NCBI RefSeq assembly: GCF_963921235.1
Contig: NC_086108.1
Coordinates: 85,748,001 to 85,812,000 of the forward strand
DNA from: Mobula hypostoma
Taxonomy: Eukaryota
DNA: 64,000 nucleotides
Direction of reading: 5' to 3'
The position numbers and the translations under genes are program-made. The notes under the pieces are model-generated. The model worked only from the letters and a program-made list of their open reading frames with translations. It was not told the DNA's origin and did no database searches. Shown here piece after piece: positions 455-55,718 of this stretch (the first letter of the stretch is position 1; every line of letters begins with the position of its first letter).

Positions 455-3172
455 TAAGACCATAAGATATAGGAGCAGAATTGGGCTATTTGGCCAGTCG
501 AGTCTGATATGCCATTTCATCATAGCTTATCCAATTTTCCTCTCAGCTCCATCTCTGCCTTCTCCCCGTATCCCTTCACACCCTGACCAATCAAGAATGT
601 TTCAACCTCTGCCTTAAATATACACTCAGACTTGGCCTTCACAGCTGCCTGTGGCAAAGAATTCCAGAGATTCACCACTCTTAGCCAAAGAAATTCCTCT
701 TCATCTCCGTTCTAAAAGGACGCCCCTCTATTCTGAGGTGGTGGCCTCTGGTCTTAGGCTCTCCCACCGTAGGAAACATACTTCTCACATATACTCTGTC
801 AAGGTCTATCACCATTCTATAGGTTTCAATGAAGTCCCCCCTCATCCTTCTGAATTGCAGTGAATCAAATGCCCAGAGCCATCAAATGCTCTTCATATGA
901 CAAACCGTTCAATACTGGAATCATTTTCGTGAACTTCCTTTGAATCCTCTCCAGTTTCAGAAGATCCCTTCTAAGATAAGGACCCCAGAACTGCTCACAA
1001 TACTGCAAGTGAGATCTCATCAGTGCTTTATAAAGGCTCAACATTACATCCTTGCTTTTATATTCTAGTCCTCTTGAAATGAATGCTAACATTGAATTTG
1101 CCTTCCTCAATACAGACTCAACCTGCAAATTAACCTTTAGGGAATCCTGCACGAGGACTCCCAAGTCCCTTTGTACTTCAGTTTTTTAATATTTTCTCCC
1201 AGTCAGAAAATAGTTAACCCTTTTATTTATTCTATCAAAGTACATGGCCTATACTTCCTGACATTATATTCCATCTACTATTTTTTTGTCCATTCTCCTA
1301 ATCTGTCTAAGTCCTCTGTAGTCTCTCTACTTCCACAAAACTACCTTCCCCTCCAACTACCTGTATGTCATATTCAAATTTTGCCTCAAAGCCACCAATT
1401 CCATCATCCAGGTCATTGACAAATAACATAAAAAGAATCGGTCCCAACATGGAGCCCTGTGGACTACCGCTAGTCATTGGCAGCCAACCAGACTCCCTTT
1501 ATTCCCACTCTTTGCCTCCTGCCAATCAGCCGCTGCTTTATCCATGCTAGAATCTTTCCTATAATGGGACAGGCTCATAGCTTATTAATCAGCTTTATGT
1601 ATGGCACCATGTCAAAGGCCTTCCGAAAATCCAAGTACACAACATCCACCAATTCTCCTTTGTCCATCCTGCTTGTTATTTCTTCAAAGAATTCCAGCAG
1701 ATTTGTTGGGCAAGATTTTCCTTTGAGGAAACCGTGGGGACTACGATCTATTTTGTCATGCACCTCCATGTACCCTGAGATCTCCTTCTTAATAATTGAC
1801 TTCAACATCTTCCCAACCACTGAGGTCAGACTAACTGGCCTATAGATTCCTTTCTCCTGCCTCTCTCTCTTCTTCAAGAGTGGAATGAAATTTGTAATTT
1901 TCCAGTCTTCCAGAAGCATTCCAGAATCTAGTGATTCTTGAAAGATTATTACTAATTCATCCATGATCTGCTCAGCCACCGCTTTCAGAAATCTGGGGTG
2001 TACACCATCTGCTCCAGTTGACTTATCTATCTTCAGACCTTTCAGTTTCCTAAGAGCCTTCTCTCTAGTTATGGTAAGTTCCCACACTTCAAGACTCCTG
2101 GCACCTGGAACTTCCACCATACTGCTGGTGTCTTCCACAGTGAAGACTGATGCAAAATACTTATTCAGTCATCCTCCATTTCAGCCCAATATCCACTCTT
2201 GCCTCTCTTTTACACTTTATGTATCTGAAGAAACTTTTGGTATCCTCTTTAATATTATTGGCTAGCTTAGTTTCATATTCCATCTTTACCTAAATGATTT
2301 CTGTTGGTTATTAAAAGCTTCCCACTCCTCTAACTTCCCACTAATTTTTGCTCTATTATATGCCTCACTTTGGTTTTTATGTTGGTTTTGACTTCTTTTG
2401 TTAGCCACAGTTGTGTCATTTTGCCTTTAGAATACTTCCTCTTTGGGATGTATATATCCTATGCCTTCTGAATTGCTTCCAGAAATTTCAGTCATTGTTG
2501 CAACATTGTCATCCCTGCCAGTGTTCTTTCCAATCAATTCTGGCCAACTCCTCTCTCATGCCTCTGCAATTCCTTTTACTCCACTGTAATACTGATACAT
2601 CTGACTTTAGCTTCTTCTCAAATTTCAGGGTGAATTCAATCATATTATGATCACTTACCCCAAAGGGTTCTTTTACCTTAAGCTGCCTAATCAATTCTGG
2701 TTCATTGCAAAACACCAAATCCAGAAGAACTTATCCTCCAGTAGGTTCAACCACAAGCTTCTCTAAAAAGCCATCCTGTAGGGACTCTAGAAATTCCCCC
2801 TCCTGTTATTCAGCACTAACCTGATTTTCTCAATCTACCTGCATCTTGAAGTCCCCCATGACTATTGTAACATTGCCCTTTTGGCATGCATTTTCTATCT
2901 CCACTTGTAATTTGTAGGCCACATCCTTACTACTGTTTAGGGGTCTGCATACAACTCCTATCAGGGTCCAACCCTTGCAGTTCCTTAGCTCTATCCACCA
3001 CAATGATTCCTTCTGAACCTATGTCACCTCTTTCTAATGACTTGATTTCATTTTTTAACCAACAGAGCAATGTCACCCCCTCTGCCTTCCTGCCTGTCAT
3101 TTTGATACAATGTGTATCCTTGGACATTAAGCTCCCAGCTATAATCTTCTTTCAGCCATGATTCAATGATGC
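455..3172 (-). mobile_element. CR1 LINE, decayed ORF2 (APE endonuclease + RT) with 3' UTR and tail
   Basis: Minus-strand ORF fragments carry CR1 motifs: YRPVSLTSVVGKMLKSII, HGFLKGKSCPTNLLEFFE, DVVYLDFRKAFD, LYKALMRSHLQYCEQFW, and APE GVSDHNMIEF. The tail begins at ~455 (TAAGACCATAAGA). Multiple frameshifts. Confidence 0.92.
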
Positions 3173-3830
3173 TGCAGTTGATGTGACGCCAAAAACAAGA
3201 TGATCATACAGTCCCTTGTGAGTGTTGATTGTGGGGAACTTCCTGCTTGACTCCTCAGTCTCCATTTGCAGATAGGCATGTGACAAGTCACTCCTTTAAA
3301 ACCTCTCCCTGCCTGTCAAAGAAGCAAAAATGTCTTCCGTTCATGGCAGGGGATTCTGCACACTACACAGCACCAGATTGATGCTCACTTTAAGATCCCC
3401 ACATATGTGCATGACTCGGGCCTTCCCTTTCTTGATCACTGGGAAAATAGGCATGGTCCAATCATTCCATTCAACCTTGGAGAGAGTTCCAGATGCCTCC
3501 AACCTCTGAAGTTTAGCATCCATTTTAGGATATAGTGTGTAAGGCACCGGACACTTAATGGAATCTTGGTGTTGCTGCTTCACTCAATTCACTTCTGACC
3601 TTCATGCCTTTGAGTTTATCGATCCCCTTCTCAAACACCTTCTCATTAGCATTAAGCAGCTGTGCCAGTCTCTGGTTAGTGCTACCATTTGGGCTGCAGT
3701 TGCCTGTTGATGCCACACTGAAAACATTGAATTGGTGCCTGTCTGGTTGGATTTTCATCAACCATTCATGTCTGAAAAGTGCTGGCCCTCCACTTCTCAA
3801 TACATAAAGCTCTAACCATTGTTTTTGGCT
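3173..3830 (-). mobile_element. Gypsy/Ty3 LTR retrotransposon pol fragment (end of protease region + N-terminal RT)
   Basis: Reads LELYVLRSGGPALF...PVPYTL..KLQRLEASGTLSKVEWNDWTMPIFPVIKK...ICGDLKVSIN...PLP, then EDIFASL...DLSHAYLQM...TINTHKGLY...LVFGV. No LTRs seen. Confidence 0.9.
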
Positions 3831-3934
3831 TGGAGGTCCTGCCCTTTAACTTAGCTCCTAACTCCCTGAACATCCTATGCAAAGCCTCGTCACTCGTCCT
3901 ACCCATGTCATTGGTGCCTACATGGACCACGATT

Positions 3935-4158
3935 CAAAGTTGCTGGTGAACGCAGCAGGCCAGGCAGCATCTCTAGGAAGAGGTACAGTCGACGTTTCAG
4001 GCCGAGACCCTTTGTCAGGATGAAGGGTCCTGACGAAGGGTCTCGGCCTGAAACGTCGACTGTACCTCTTCCTAGAGATGCTGCCTGGCCTGTTGCGTTC
4101 ACCAGCAACTTTGATGTGTGTTGCTTGAATTTCCAGCATCTGCAGAATTCCTGTTGTT
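3935..4158 (+). mobile_element. Penelope-like element pseudo-LTR inserted as a fold-back palindrome
   Basis: 87-bp inverted arms (3934-4020 / 4028-4114) with a 7-nt spacer. 12-bp TSD TGGACCACGATT at 3923-3934 and 4159-4170. Confidence 0.85.
4027..4061 (+). ncRNA. Minimal type I hammerhead ribozyme core (Penelope pLTR type)
   Basis: GTC-CTGACGA-AGGGTCTCGGCCT-GAAAC-GTC-GAC: intact CUGANGA and GAAA boxes, GUC cleavage triplet, GTC/GAC helix I, vestigial helix III. Confidence 0.75.
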
Positions 4159-6550
4159 TGGACCACGATTTCTGGTTATTCGCCTTCTCACTTAATGAGC
4201 ACCCATTTTGAGATATCCTGGACCATGGCACCTGGGAGGCAACATACCATCTGGGAACCTTTTTCCTGTCCACAGAACCTAACTAACTGTGTTCCCCTAA
4301 CTAATGAATACCTTATTACCACAGTGTGCCTCTTCTGTCATCCCCACCCCCCAGAGGCAGACTCAGTGCCAGAGACTTGCCCACTGAGACTTTCTTCTAT
4401 TAGGTCACCACACCAACCCCCTCCCACCCCACCACACAAGGGTATTCTGCACTGGCCTCCTTAACCCCTTTCCCCTTCCTGACTGTCAACCAATTTCCTG
4501 TGTCCTGCACCTTGGGTGTAACTACCTCTCTATGTCCTATTCATCAACCCCTCAGCCTACCAAATAATCCAGTTCCAACAGCCATTCCTTAACGCGGAAT
4601 GCATCTGGGTGCACTTCTCGCAGTTGTAGTCATCAGGGACACTGGAGGTCTCCCTGCCTTCCCAGATCCCGCAAGAGGAGTATTCACACATCCTGCCTGG
4701 CATCTCTACTGTCCTAGCTGAACAGATATAAAGAAGAAGATAAAAATATTGAGATTTTCTTTCCTTTGCTTTTTCTGACTGAAGCCTCAAAGAGAAATTA
4801 ATCTGTCTAGCCCCGTTGATCTGCACCCAGACTATAGCCCTACGTACCCCTTCTATCCACATATCTATCCGAATTTCTTTTAAATGTTGAAATTGAACCT
4901 GCACCCACCAGTAGCATTAGTAGCTCATTCCACACTGTCACCACCTTCTAAGTGAAGAAGTTCCCCCTCATGTTCCCCTTAAACATTTCAGCTTTCACCT
5001 TGAACCCATGACCCCCAGTTGTATTCTCACCCAACCTTAGTGGAAGAAGCCAGCTTGCATTTACCCTGTCTTTACCCTTCATAATTTTGTGTACTTCTAT
5101 CAAATCTCCCGTCACTCTTGTACATTCTAGAGAATAAAGTTCCAACCTATTCAACCTTTCCAACCTTTCCCTATATTTCAGGTCCTCAAGTCCTAACAAC
5201 ATTTTCTCTGCACTGTTTCAACCTTGTTTACATCTTTCCTGTAGGTAGGTGAGCAAAACTGCATACAATACTCCAAATTAGGCTTCACAATCATCTTATA
5301 CAATTTCAACGTAGCATGCCAACTCCTGTACTCAATACATTGATTTATAAAGTCCAATGTGCCAAGAGCTTTCTTTATGATCCTATCTACCTGTGATGCC
5401 ACTTTCAAGTAATTATAGATATGTAGATGGGCCAGAGGGCCTGTTTCTGTGCTGTACTTCTCTATGACTCTCTGAATCTGTTCTACCACACTCATTAGTG
5501 CCCTTCCATTCACAGTGTAAGATCTACCCTGCTTAGCCCTCCCAAAGTGCAACACCCCACACTCGCCTGCATTAAACTTCATCTTCTATTTTTCAGCCCG
5601 TTTTTCCATCAAGTTCAGATGCTCCTGTAAGCTTTGATAGTCTTCCTCAATATCCACTACACCACCAACACTGGTGTCATCCATAAATTTGCTGATTTAG
5701 TTCATCACATTATCATCCAAATCATTGATATCGATGAGAAACAACAGACCCAGCACCAATCCCTGCAGAACACCACTAGTCAGAGGCCTCCAGTCAGGGG
5801 CAACCATATATAACTGCTCTCTGGCTTCTTCCGCAAAGTCAATGCTAAATCCAATTTGCAACCTCATCCTGAATGTCAAGTGACTGAACCTTCTTGACCA
5901 ACCTCCCATATGGGACCTTGTCAATGTCCTTGCTAAAGTCCATGCAGACAACATCCACTGATTTACCTTCATCAACTTTCCTGGTAACATCCTCAAAAAA
6001 CTATATAAGATTAGTTTGACATGACCTACCATGCATCATGTTGACTATCCCTAATCAGTCCCTGTCTATCCAAATACTTGGATATCTAGTCCCTTAGAAT
6101 ACTTTTCAAAAGTTTTCTCACTATTGTTGTTAGACTCATCAGCCTATAATTTTGTGATTTATTCTTAGAGCCTTTCTTAAATAATGGAACAGTATTAGCT
6201 AATCTCTAATTCTCTGGCACCTCACTCGTGGCTAAGGATGTTTTAAATATCATTGCTAGGGCTCGTGCAGTTTCCGCACTAGCCTCAAACAGGGTTTAAG
6301 GGAACACTTTGTAAGGTCCTGCAGATTTATCCACCCTAGTTTGCCACAAGACTGCAAGCACCTTCTTTGTAATCTCACATCTATAGACTGTGCGTGCATT
6401 TCCCGAGTAAATACAGATGCAAAAGTCCATTTCAGATCTCCCCACCTCTTTCAGCTTCATGCATAGATAACCACTTTGATTTTCCAGAGGACCATTTTTG
6501 TTCATTGCTATGCTTTTGCTCTTAATATATCTTGTGAAGCCCTTAGTATT

Positions 6551-7954: not shown

Positions 7955-8480
7955 AAACTGTATAATCCTTCTATTTCTGGCCTCACTAGCATGTTTCTCG
8001 GGTAGCAATCCTGAGATCATGACTCTGGCGGTCCTGTCCTTTAATTTGGCACCTCTACTGCCTGAATTGACTTTGTAGAACCTCGTCACCCATCTTACCC
8101 ACGTCATTGGTCCAACATGGACCACGTCTTCTGGCTCATCCTCCCTCTTAGAGATGTCCCTGGTCCTGATATCTGGGAGGCAACAAATTATCTGGGAATC
8201 TTGCTCTCATCCACAAACCTTCTTTGTGTTCCCTTAACCAGCGAATCCTCTATCTGAGTCACAGAGCCAGATTCAGTGCCAGAGAACTTAACCCTCTGGC
8301 TTTCCCCTGTTAGGTCATCCTCTCCAACAGTATGCAAAGTGTTATTCCTGTTAATGGGGGAATGGCCACAGGGTTACTCTGCACTGGCTGCCTATCTCCT
8401 TTTCCCCTCCTAACCCAGTTACCTGTCTTCTGCACCTTGGGTGTAAATACCTCCTTGTATGTCCTTCTATGTACCACCTT

Positions 8481-8672
8481 GGGGTGTATGGGGTGTCAGG
8501 GAGGGGTAGTACCTCTAGTGGGGGAGCATGTCACGTCCTTTTCAAGGCAGTTAGTCCACTTTTGGTCCCCACCTGGCACTCAGCTCTCACCTGTGGCTCC
8601 CTGTAGCTGTTTGCATGTGACAGCGGCCACACCCCGGGCAATGGCTTCGACAAGCCGGCTAAACGAGGTGAG
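8481..8672 (+). ncRNA. HDV-like self-cleaving ribozyme (copy 1)
   Basis: P1 GGGGTGT(8481)/ACACCCC(8629). P2 CTCACCTGT/AC-g-AGGTGAG. P3 GGC/GCC. L3 starts TCC and pairs with GG(8636). P4 TGGCTT/AAGCCG. J4/2 GCTAA with putative catalytic C8659. Confidence 0.72.
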
Positions 8673-8761
8673 GTTAGCCGACGGGTCTCAAACCCTTGGT
8701 GAGATAGGGAGTTGTCTATCCCAGCATGTGAAGACAGACTCCAGCGGATTGAGCGGATGAG

Positions 8762-9030
8762 ACCATAGAAAAACTACAGCACAGAAACAAGCCTTTTGGC
8801 CCTTCTTGGCTGTGCCGAACCATTTTCTGCCTAGTCCCACTGACCTGCACACGGACCATGTCCCTCCATACACCTCCCATCCAAATATCTGTCCAATTTA
8901 TTCTTAAATGTTAAAAAAGAACCCGCATTTACCACCTCGTCTGGCAGCTCATTCCATACTCCCACCACTCTCTGTGTGAAGAAGCCCCCCCTAATGTTCC
9001 CTTTAAACTTTTCCCCCCTCACCCTTAACC
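8762..9030 (-). mobile_element. CR1 3' end fragment
   Basis: LRVRGEKFKGNIRGGFFTQRVVGVWNELP...LDRYLD plus 3' UTR. Confidence 0.9.
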
Positions 9031-11074
9031 CAATGGAAGGTCCTACAGTCAAGAAGGCGGTCTCTGCAAGCGTCGTGGAACCTGTAGAACAGGACAAGAC
9101 ACAGAAGTCGTCCTGGTCATCCACTGCACCTAGTCCAATCTCCAGCCATCTCGACTCTGTCTTGTCACTGAATCCAGATAGGAATTGGGAAGAGAGAGTG
9201 AGGCTGACGCTGCGCAACTCTCCCTCACTTAAATCCAAATCATGTGCTAGTCTCGACACAATATGGTATTGAAGTCCTCATCGACGTCGACGATGGATGA
9301 ACAATGTACCACCTTGTACCCCTCATCCTTACAAATGATCCAGTGTTCATCCATTTCCAGCTCTAACTCCTTAACACATTCTGTTGGAAGCTGCAGCTGG
9401 ATGCGCTTCCTGTAGGTGTAGTTGTCAGGGTCAATGGAGGTCTTCTCCCTTGCATGTCCTACAAGACGAGCATTCTCATGTCCTGTCTAGCATCCTCACT
9501 GCTCTAAATGTGCAATAAGAAAGAAATAAAGAATAAATAATGAAGACAAAAATCAACCTATAGCCTTCACCTCCCCTTGCCAAAGCTCCAACTCCCCACT
9601 CCAGCACTGGCCCTCTCACACAATGGCCGTTCAGCTTAAACCTAACTTTATTTTTATTGGTTCTTGCCAAGTGTCTGATTACGCACAATCCAATCTCTCC
9701 TCAGGAACTGTGGTGAGCAGTAAGTGCTGACTGCCCCGCTCGCTTCTTTTAAATTCCCTTTCCCTCTGCTCAATCCGCTGTCTCTTTGGGACTGTGCTGC
9801 GCAAAATGTGCCAGCTGTCCTTACTCACTTATTGTATCTTTCTCTCCCTCTACACTATCTGGTGTCTCCTCGAGACTGGTGCACTGTGTATGGCTCATTG
9901 GGCCGGAAGAACCTGTTGTACAATTTGGCTCCAACTAACCAAGTAGTAAATTAAAAAAAACATTATCATCCCCATTCTTTTCAGTAGGCTCTCTGCTTAT
10001 CAGTGCATCAATCCTCCCACACTTCTTTCTCAGGGGTGTACAGCAACAGTGGTTCCCCTTGATTGATGACTTCTACCACATGTTCTAGAGCAGGACTGAG
10101 GGAAGGCAGTGGGGTCATTTTTGATTACCTATGTTTGGGAACTGGATGAGTGAGTTTTTGAGAATGCACAGGTCAACTAGAACCAGCACCAACTCAGTTC
10201 TCTCCCGCCACTTCCAAAGGTAATCAGCAGAGTCCTGCAGTTGAGACCATTCAGAAAGCTTCTGCTTACTTTCAACAGTGTATGGAGATTTAGGTCCAAC
10301 TGTACCATGGAGTCCAAATGACAACTTTACCCCAAGCTTTGGTTCAGATTAAACGCCAAGTTGCTGCAGGTCAGGGGGATTCTCCCAGTAAATTGAAAAA
10401 TGTTACTGTTGTGCCATTAAAAACCATTATAATTCCTCCAATCCTCACAAGAAATGTTCTCAACCTCCTCTCCCCTGGAGTTTACCCATCAACTACAAAG
10501 CTTTACTCTAGCTAGTTAACTGTGTTTTACTCGGCTCTTCACTTTCCACTCCAATCTGGTTAGGATGTCAGCCAATAACAAGTAAATGAAGACTTAGGTC
10601 ATTCTGGGTACTTATCCTGCTCCTTGCCTATCTAAAACCTGCACTTTTGTCCTGTAAGGACTTTTAAGATTGATGCACAAAAGTTTTCACACCATAATTA
10701 TGAGAGCTGAAGACGCATTTACTTTTCGAGTCAAGTGTCCTTGAAGACGTGTACAAGTCACTGAGGGAATTAAAGTGAGCTGACAGAGTAAATTTTGAAT
10801 TATGAAGTGGAAAGGTTGACTTTTGTAGCTGTAATTTTGCTAATGTTCAGATGCTGGTAGAGAGAGTATAAAAGATTTTATGTAGCTCTGTGGTTGATGT
10901 AAAAGATGCGGCAAGAGAACCTTGACTTACCTTGGGTAACCTTTACTGCAATCCTTGAGCTACCAACATCTAGCAGTGCTCCCTTGTGAACCATTCTGCT
11001 CCTCACTGCTGACAGAAACACTTTCTCAGCCACATGGGCATATCCGAGCTATACAGTAATTTTTCTGTGATGTT

Positions 11075-55146: not shown

Positions 55147-55337
55147 GGGGTATATGCGGTGTCAGGGAGGGGTAGCACCTCTGGTGGGGGAACATGTCGC
55201 GTCCTTTTCAGGGCGGTTAGTCCACCTTTGGTCCCCACCTGGCACTCAGCTCTCACCTGTGGCTCCCCGTAGCTGTTTGCATGCGACAGAGCCACACCCT
55301 GGGCAACGGCTTCGACAAGCCGGCTAAACCAGGTGAG
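55147..55337 (+). ncRNA. HDV-like self-cleaving ribozyme (copy 2)
   Basis: P1 GGGGTAT/ACACCCT with a G1-U wobble. P2 CTCACCTGT/AC-c-AGGTGAG. P3 GGC/GCC. P1.1 GG 55301. GCAA. P4 CGGCTT-CGAC-AAGCCG. GCTAA with C55324. Confidence 0.72.
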
Positions 55338-55718
55338 GGTAGCTGACGGGTCTTAAACCCTCGGTGAGATAGGGAGTTGTCTATCCCAGCATGTGAAGAC
55401 AGACTCTGGCAGATTGAGCGGACAAGACCAGCGTAAAGGCCAACGGTCAAGAAGGCGGTCTCTGCAAGCGTCGTGGAACGTGTAGAGCAGGACAAGACAC
55501 AGAAGACGTCCTGGTCATCCACTGCGCCTAGCCCCATCTCCAGCCATCTAGACTCTGTCTTCCCACTGGATCCAGATGGGAACTGGGAAGAGAGAGTGAG
55601 GTTGACGCTGCGCAACTCTCCCTCACTTAAATCCAAATCACGCGCTAGTCTCGACACCATCATTATGGTGTCGAGGTCCTCTTCGACGTCAACGATGGAC
55701 GAACAACAACAACAACAA
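55147..55718 (+). mobile_element. Non-autonomous RTE-related retroelement (copy 2, uninterrupted)
   Basis: (AAC)n tail at 55702-55719. TSD CATAGAGTCAT at 55135-55145 and 55719-55729. Collinear with 8481-9303. Confidence 0.82.

Follow-up and report, generated by a model that had tools for sequence, protein, structure and literature searches.

HDV-like ribozymes are established at the 5′ ends of the R2, L1Tc/Ingi and RTE retrotransposons (Ruminski et al. 2011, as cited in PMC5786205 and PMC6765202). The R2 ribozymes vary in P1, P2 and P4 and slightly in the spacing of L3 (PMC3774820), L3 itself is 7 nt long in the antigenomic HDV and CPEB3 ribozymes and one nucleotide longer in genomic HDV (bioRxiv 2022.09.22.508989), and a large structured J1/2 speeds cleavage (PMC4908430). 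Deletion derivatives that carry a ribozyme head are known for R2, as SIDEs and R2/R1 hybrid SIDEs (PMC3414825), and for L1Tc/Ingi, as NARTc, RIME and SIDER (PMC4035085). The manner in which RTE 5′ ends are formed is also of practical value, because RTE 5′ UTRs serve in gene-writing templates (PMC13708176).

Here we analyze a 64,000-nt stretch of the Mobula hypostoma genome (NC_086108.1, positions 85,748,001 to 85,812,000; "the window"), which contains a short non-autonomous element whose first base opens an HDV-like fold. The element is built to work as the HDV-like retrotransposon ribozymes do, a biological role that is already known, and departs from them in the size of L3; the novelty lies in an extra helix within that loop.

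Results

An HDV-like fold begins at the first base of the element

P1, P2, P3, P1.1 and P4 are all present in nested double-pseudoknot order, and J4/2 holds the predicted catalytic C followed by N-A-A (Table 1). The initial annotation had assigned these parts, including the GGC/GCC pairing of P3, the UCC of L3 facing GG, GCAA and a J4/2 of GCUAA, exactly where we find them, and its J1/2 of about 100 nt measures 97 nt; it was also right that G8481 directly follows a target-site duplication (TSD), here 12 bp long. While the HDV order that it described stands, its treatment of the fold as canonical does not, as it missed the 28-nt L3 with its 6-bp hairpin. The P1 5′ strand occurs a second time at 8490–8496. 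P1, which in HDV-like ribozymes comprises 6–7 bp from the cleavage site, pairs 7/7 in the window copy, in the consensus sequences of its family (A) and of a sister family (C), and in the metagenome loci L206, L207, L208 and L211; it contains a mismatch in the G6A subfamily and in L209.

Table 1. Parts of the element copy at 8469–9315, and a second copy, in window coordinates
Feature	Position	Strand	Remarks
Left TSD	8469–8480	+	12 bp, ATGTACCACCTT; exact repeat at 9304–9315; G8481 adjoins
P1 5′ strand	8481–8487	+	pairs 7/7 with 8629–8635; G8481 is element base 1 and predicted cleavage site
J1/2	8488–8584	+	97 nt; folds as a single long P1.2 hairpin
P1.2 outer stem	8491–8500 with 8572–8581	+	buries second P1-strand copy (8490–8496)
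P2 5′ strand	8585–8594	+	pairs with 8663–8673, one bulge
P3 5′ strand	8595–8597	+	GGC, pairs with GCC 8626–8628; invariant, but required by the metagenome search pattern
L3	8598–8625	+	28 nt; eight canonical-looking bases, then inserted hairpin, then G
Extra L3 hairpin	8606–8624	+	6 bp, 7-nt loop; 8606–8611 pairs with 8619–8624
P3 3′ strand	8626–8628	+	GCC
P1 3′ strand	8629–8635	+	
P1.1	8636–8637	+	GG; L3 starts UCC, which can pair with GG
J1.1/4	8638–8641	+	GCAA
P4 hairpin	8642–8657	+	
J4/2	8658–8662	+	GCUAA; predicted catalytic C is C8659
P2 3′ strand	8663–8673	+	bulged C at 8664, invariant in 8/8 rows
RTE 5′ UTR-derived body, part 1	8674–8765	+	element nt 3–521 78% identical to L206 5′ UTR
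Segment complementary to L3-hairpin loop	8724–8730	+	candidate third pseudoknot; post hoc, weak
Later insertion, inverted LINE 3′ end	8766–9032	−	about 73% identical to other window repeats; reads as LINE ORF C-terminus; missing from other copies
RTE 5′ UTR-derived body, part 2	9033–9261	+	element nt 232–505 76% identical to FamC 5′ UTR
RTE 3′ tail	9262–9303	+	stem-loop and CAA repeat; 26/31 nt identical to FamC 3′ end
Right TSD	9304–9315	+	exact repeat of 8469–8480
Second family copy, uninterrupted	55147–55710	+	G6A, G11C; P3 region damaged

We searched both strands of the window with an HDV descriptor, a check that had been proposed with the initial annotation, and find the 8481 site as the sole match, with none in Markov controls of 30.3 Mb and 18.6 Mb (49 Mb); the descriptor was written after the element had been seen and allowed an L3 of 7–9 nt, or of 16–40 nt with a hairpin. 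Rfam returns nothing at the gathering score for the window element, and a single irrelevant, non-ribozyme match at E ≤ 10. Nested folding of the 200-nt strand is no better than that of shuffles (z = −0.6), a calculation that cannot test a pseudoknot, and the nested pairing probability of P1 ranges from 0 in sister family B through 0.001 in A and 0.03 in the window copy to 0.73 in C. By the descriptor search, the fold at 8481–8673 is a real HDV-like fold and beyond chance; self-cleavage of this head is its predicted activity.

Helices covary across lineages

A core-motif scan of metagenomes yielded seven loci, six of them distinct. The search pattern prescribed P3, the beginning of L3, the P1.1 GG, GCAA and J4/2 and demanded no pairing in P1, P2, P4 or the L3 hairpin; invariance of the core bases in the six homologs is thus no evidence, because the pattern required them. 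Covariation, also proposed as a check with the initial annotation, is found in five helices: in an alignment of eight sequences 17 of 44 pairs show compensatory change and 90.9% of cells pair, and in one of 12 core sequences the corresponding values are 13 of 27 pairs and 91.3%. Not one of 500 shuffles matches the observed covariation in either alignment, by a control that ignores relatedness among the sequences, and slid partners pair at only 34–47% in the eight sequences and 28–49% over both alignments. Changes on both sides of a pair occur in P1 (2/7), P1.2 (3/10), P2 (4/10), the L3 hairpin (5/6) and P4 (3/6, rising to 4/6 in the 12-sequence alignment), and the long-range P1 covaries on both strands in L206 and L207. 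Covariation within family A is uninformative at 97% column identity.

The consensus heads of families A, B and C differ by about 18% and yet retain P1, P2, P3 and the L3 hairpin, and in A and C also P4, through compensatory changes. Sister families B and C likewise retain the catalytic C, the adenines of J4/2 and the GG of P1.1 in their consensus sequences, and the search that led to them required none of these. The long J1/2 hairpin is similar in all seven lineages folded; in A, B and C the second P1 strand is sequestered in its outer stem, and pairing from G10 has a probability of 0 in all four sequences tested. Departures from the common build are found among the metagenome loci, of which just 3/7 pass the strict descriptor: L210 is without P1 and P2, and P4 is broken in L208. 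L208, L209, L210 and L212 share the ribozyme build, with a hairpin that is very different in sequence and with other sequence downstream, and L209 apparently ends in a short RTE 3′ piece. The variant with the L3 hairpin may span several RTE lineages. Viral contigs gave six matches to a looser pattern, none of which passes the descriptor.

L3 contains an additional helix

L3 measures 26–29 nt and contains an inserted helix in all ten rows tabulated, as compared with the canonical 7–8 nt. In the eight-sequence alignment 95.7% of the hairpin cells pair, and most of the two-sided changes in this hairpin stem from one divergent group (L208, L209 and L210). All six distinct metagenome homologs form the hairpin, whose pairing the search pattern did not require, and the two sister families keep it as well. 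A search for further L3 variants returned 37 matches that are consistent with mutated copies, as judged from the matches alone. Our literature search found no report of an L3 insertion or helix in HDV-like ribozymes; its scope lay outside Ruminski 2011, Webb 2009, Webb and Luptak 2011 with their supplements, Repbase and Dfam, which may bear on novelty.

The extra helix is inserted after the eighth L3 base, past the P1.1 bases and the G facing the first L3 U. In terms of the HDV structure, the helix therefore probably points outward, away from the active site. If the ribozyme is active, the HDV catalytic core can accommodate a natural helix of 17–20 nt in one of its loops; engineering would gain a new site, and motif searches would merit repeating with a relaxed L3.

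CAYG is retained in the loop region of this hairpin across the lineages tabulated. For A, B, C, L206 and L211, one shared segment, about 50 nt downstream of the ribozyme, offers the best complement of the loop to be found within 150 nt, with 6–7 bp; the complement lies at the homologous place in these 5 of 10 rows and not in the other five. Between C and A both loop partners differ in a compensating way, each by a CpG-type change; these are two of only four such changes among 21 CpGs, a coincidence expected in about 3% of cases by chance in a post hoc comparison. A third pseudoknot between the loop and the downstream segment is a minority possibility that we would favor much less than its absence. 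The broader proposal is that a wide RTE lineage is headed by active HDV-like ribozymes of a subclass not described before, and that this third pseudoknot tunes cleavage or locks the cut 5′ end. We regard it as similarly doubtful though worth stating: if true, searches that fix L3 at 7–8 nt would miss the subclass, and ribozyme-headed RTEs in animals would be far commoner than counted.

Copies of family A share a sharp 5′ end

The family consensus is about 565 nt with its CAA tail, in keeping with the initial estimate of about 570 bp, which does not hold for the window copy; that copy spans 823 bp because of the inverted insert at 8766–9032, which we take to be the 3′ end of a CR1-type LINE. 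The 3.48-Gb genome contains at least 4,369 copies. Counting 30-mers at up to two mismatches gives 3,130 matches at nt 12–41 and 4,369 near nt 420–450, with none for reversed controls, and therefore about 70% of copies reach the 5′ end while about 30% are 5′-truncated. Copy 5′ ends do cluster at G1, another of the checks proposed at the outset: 25 of 30 copies start at G1 and five at nt 2–4, with no shared upstream sequence, in a sample of the first 30 copies that match the 5′ 30-mer exactly, in which only copies reaching nt 12 could be counted and two represent one duplicated locus. A sequencing run of another organism contributes 122 contigs that break off at the same point into unrelated flanks. 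The sequencing runs listed as carrying the element include no RNA run, and the four examined consist of contigs, in which RNA ends do not show. T is found at −1 and at −2 in 17/30 copies each, reflecting target preference or untemplated addition. Flanking repeats of 7–17 bp, some of the short ones probably due to chance, are present in 45 of 58 copies, 23 of them ending within 1 nt of G1.

Copies lie 3.6% from the consensus (23 of 30 kept). The ribozyme region at first seemed especially conserved (2.2% vs 4.5%); this was rejected, as the values became 2.5% vs 2.2% (p = 0.46) once 7/30 truncated, composite, nested or duplicate copies were dropped. The full descriptor is passed by 11/30 copies, and the G6A subfamily (4/30 copies) has an uncompensated A-C in P1. 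As first annotated, the element has no tRNA head and no transposon ORF: no tRNA gene was found in it, and the second copy, on which the frame search was run, has no frame over 160 codons.

A composite subfamily (5/88 copies: L013 at about 2017–2200, L019, L177, L185 and L193) carries a tRNA-like short element at nt ~517, where an 11-bp hairpin at the body–tail junction holds it in its loop, and has a tail that differs from that of the main family. At L192 one element copy is inserted near the 3′ end of another. Elsewhere in the window, 3921–4127 is an inverted repeat with 100-nt arms that are 92% complementary and 7 nt apart.

The element derives from an RTE by internal deletion

By homology the element is a bipartite non-autonomous RTE of about 565 nt, a 5′ UTR joined to a 3′ tail by internal deletion, and not a SINE. 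SINEs in the strict sense have a tRNA, 7SL or 5S head; here there is no tRNA and no Rfam match, and the head is homologous to RTE 5′ ends. What remains of the initial proposal of a ribozyme-headed SINE-like family is that the family is non-autonomous and so headed; the SINE-like novelty falls away, since internally deleted elements of this class are known in R2 and L1Tc. The 5′ part is 78% identical to the RTE 5′ UTR of L206 (element nt 3–521), 76% to that of L211 (1–426) and 75% to that of L269 (1–498), each of which runs into an endonuclease/RT frame. The metagenome locus L207 also continues into such a frame, giving four autonomous RTE copies with the same head (L206, L207, L211 and L269). 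The junction of 5′ UTR and tail lies near element nt 505–520, and the 3′ end, with its CAA repeats, matches the end of an RTE family that we call FamC, a short match with E about 0.003.

FamC was found by a search with an RTE C-terminal motif (495 matches), in which 27 of 30 loci proved to be one young family. It has a single endonuclease-RT frame, whose protein finds only generic RT clusters in a protein-atlas look-up; the RTE clade label is based on this single frame, the tail and a by-eye match to named RTEs. No FamC head was detected, as 0/30 5′ loci pass the descriptor or a covariance model, and in a search with the whole L206 5′ UTR all 40 scored candidates are headless FamC copies that match only from nt 221–228. 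FamC 5′ ends are ragged: they scatter across about 400 nt and continue into GC-rich coding fragments; ragged ends are expected in a 4-kb LINE from truncation alone. The fragments lie upstream of 1501 (L146–L175, e.g. L164:1039–1290), and that of L164 encodes a glyoxalase-family frame (E 6.8e-12), presumably MCEE, while those of L161 and L172 appear to us to resemble MOSMO and OTUD5. They look like pieces of host mRNA captured after loss of the ribozyme head.

At 76% identity and with no head, FamC was rejected as the direct parent of the element. Two RTE families bearing DUF6451 were rejected as well, with no blastn match and no descriptor or model match in 33–35 loci. These families (L076 at 1757–4813 on the minus strand, with a frame of 1,018 codons, L083 and L092; and L078 and L080) have heads unrelated to that of the element, the head of the first being, we presume, twister-like. 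A direct parent was not found in the Mobula hypostoma genome.

A search with a sister motif, drawn from variants in the other organism's run, gave 851 exact matches. Of the 30 loci classified (L219–L248), 18 belong to an older family B, 11 to family C, whose tail is different, and one is a decayed autonomous headed RTE (L234, extended as L269). The head is common to B and C (82% over nt 1–380) but their tails differ, the last ~130 nt of C being unrelated to those of A. Family C starts at G1 in 7/12 cases. Family B starts are scattered, with 3/18 at G1 and 5/18 at nt 9–11, near the second P1 strand (L220, L222, L224, L225 and L232); the latter could represent cleavage at G10, decay or alignment error, and L220 looks like an alignment error. 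The head is thus kept in three non-autonomous families with different tails and in four autonomous copies, and FamC is without it. Judged by offset and by eye in the supplement of PMC5786205, RTE-3_AMi would have its consensus start near element nt 232, the point from which FamC is homologous as well, and this named family may be headless too.

Discussion

The account that best explains these data, and one that we hold with good confidence, is that the element is a deletion derivative of an RTE 5′ UTR and tail whose HDV-like head would free unit-length RNA that is mobilized in trans. The 5′ UTR of an RTE-clade LINE would have been joined to an RTE 3′ tail by internal deletion; a copy in a transcribed region would be read through from a host promoter, and the ribozyme would cut 5′ of G1 to release the unit-length RNA, with G1 used rather than G10 because P1.2 sequesters the duplicated P1 strand. 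An RTE protein acting in trans would then bind the tail and insert the RNA by target-primed reverse transcription, whose footprints, a TSD and a CAA tail, are present; FamC is most likely the best candidate for this partner.

An unlikely alternative in our estimation is that the head is of ribozyme descent and has lost the ability to cut, its active site being blocked by the L3 helix. G1 would then be set by an internal promoter, and the fold would guard the 5′ end from decay or provide a protein-binding module. There is precedent in that the L1Tc head doubles as a promoter (PMC3383444) and that the fold reportedly protects the template RNA of R2 (PMC13708176); L3 is also far outside the published 7–8 nt, and FamC spreads without any head. 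A promoter, however, would not need a P1 that starts at base 1 and covaries on both sides, nor does loss of cutting sit well with the catalytic C, J4/2 adenines and P1.1 GG in sister families that were found without requiring them. It is less likely still that the ribozyme worked in an autonomous ancestor and is now a passenger, the sharp 5′ end of family A being copied from one or few source transcripts. Inserted copies do decay neutrally, the ribozyme showing no added conservation, and an uncompensated P1 mismatch has spread in the G6A subfamily; but neutral decay of inserted copies is expected under either reading, mismatches occur at the top of P1 in about a quarter of R2 ribozymes (PMC3774820), and the heads of A, B and C have kept their helices across ~18% divergence.

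That G-rich repeat sequence matches the fold by chance is largely refuted, and we give it almost no weight. The post hoc descriptor, the empty Rfam result and the z of −0.6 would fit such a match, but 49 Mb of controls hold none, five helices covary, and the L3 hairpin appears unprompted in six of six distinct metagenome matches, as against 0/6 viral matches to the looser pattern that pass the descriptor.

With the HDV-like ribozymes of R2, L1Tc/Ingi and RTE, the head shares the nested double-pseudoknot order, the catalytic C in J4/2 and an element start at the first base of P1, and with drz-Agam-2-1 it shares a large structured J1/2 (PMC4908430). It differs in an L3 of 26–29 nt with a 5–6 bp helix rather than 7–8 nt, a bulged C in P2 adjoining P3 and a duplicated P1 strand in P1.2. 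Our literature search for RTE ribozymes in vertebrates or sharks, with Ruminski 2011 and Webb 2009 outside its scope, found no report. The twister T-variants of Perere-3, an RTE-clade element of Schistosoma, likewise set the RTE 5′ end next to the TSD, but belong to another ribozyme class and have a P1 that depends on the target site, where P1 is wholly internal here (PMC8501958).

Like the R2 SIDEs, NARTc, RIME and SIDER, the element is non-autonomous and combines a ribozyme head with a LINE 3′ end, and its head is reused with other tails, as in sister family C (cf. the R2/R1 hybrids); unlike them, it belongs to the RTE clade and is inserted in dispersed fashion with TSDs, in thousands of copies in a 3.5-Gb animal genome. 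Its closest counterparts in composition are the bipartite RTEs WALLSI3, RTESINE2, MAR4 and Bov-A, which also consist of an RTE 5′ UTR and 3′ end with no ORF (PMC5786205). By eye, the distal body and tail of the element correspond to blocks aligned in the supplement of that paper for WALLSI1A with RTE-3_AMi and WALLSI1 with RTE-1_NV, and two head motifs have no match in one of its text supplements. The difference is that the element keeps the extreme 5′ end with its ribozyme, a link that the paper only suggests (PMC5786205). If active, the element would be a concrete case for the suggestion made there that the propensity of RTE, Ingi and R2 to spawn bipartite non-autonomous elements is due to their ribozyme heads, and the presence of three headed derivatives and a headless autonomous family in one genome makes that suggestion directly testable.
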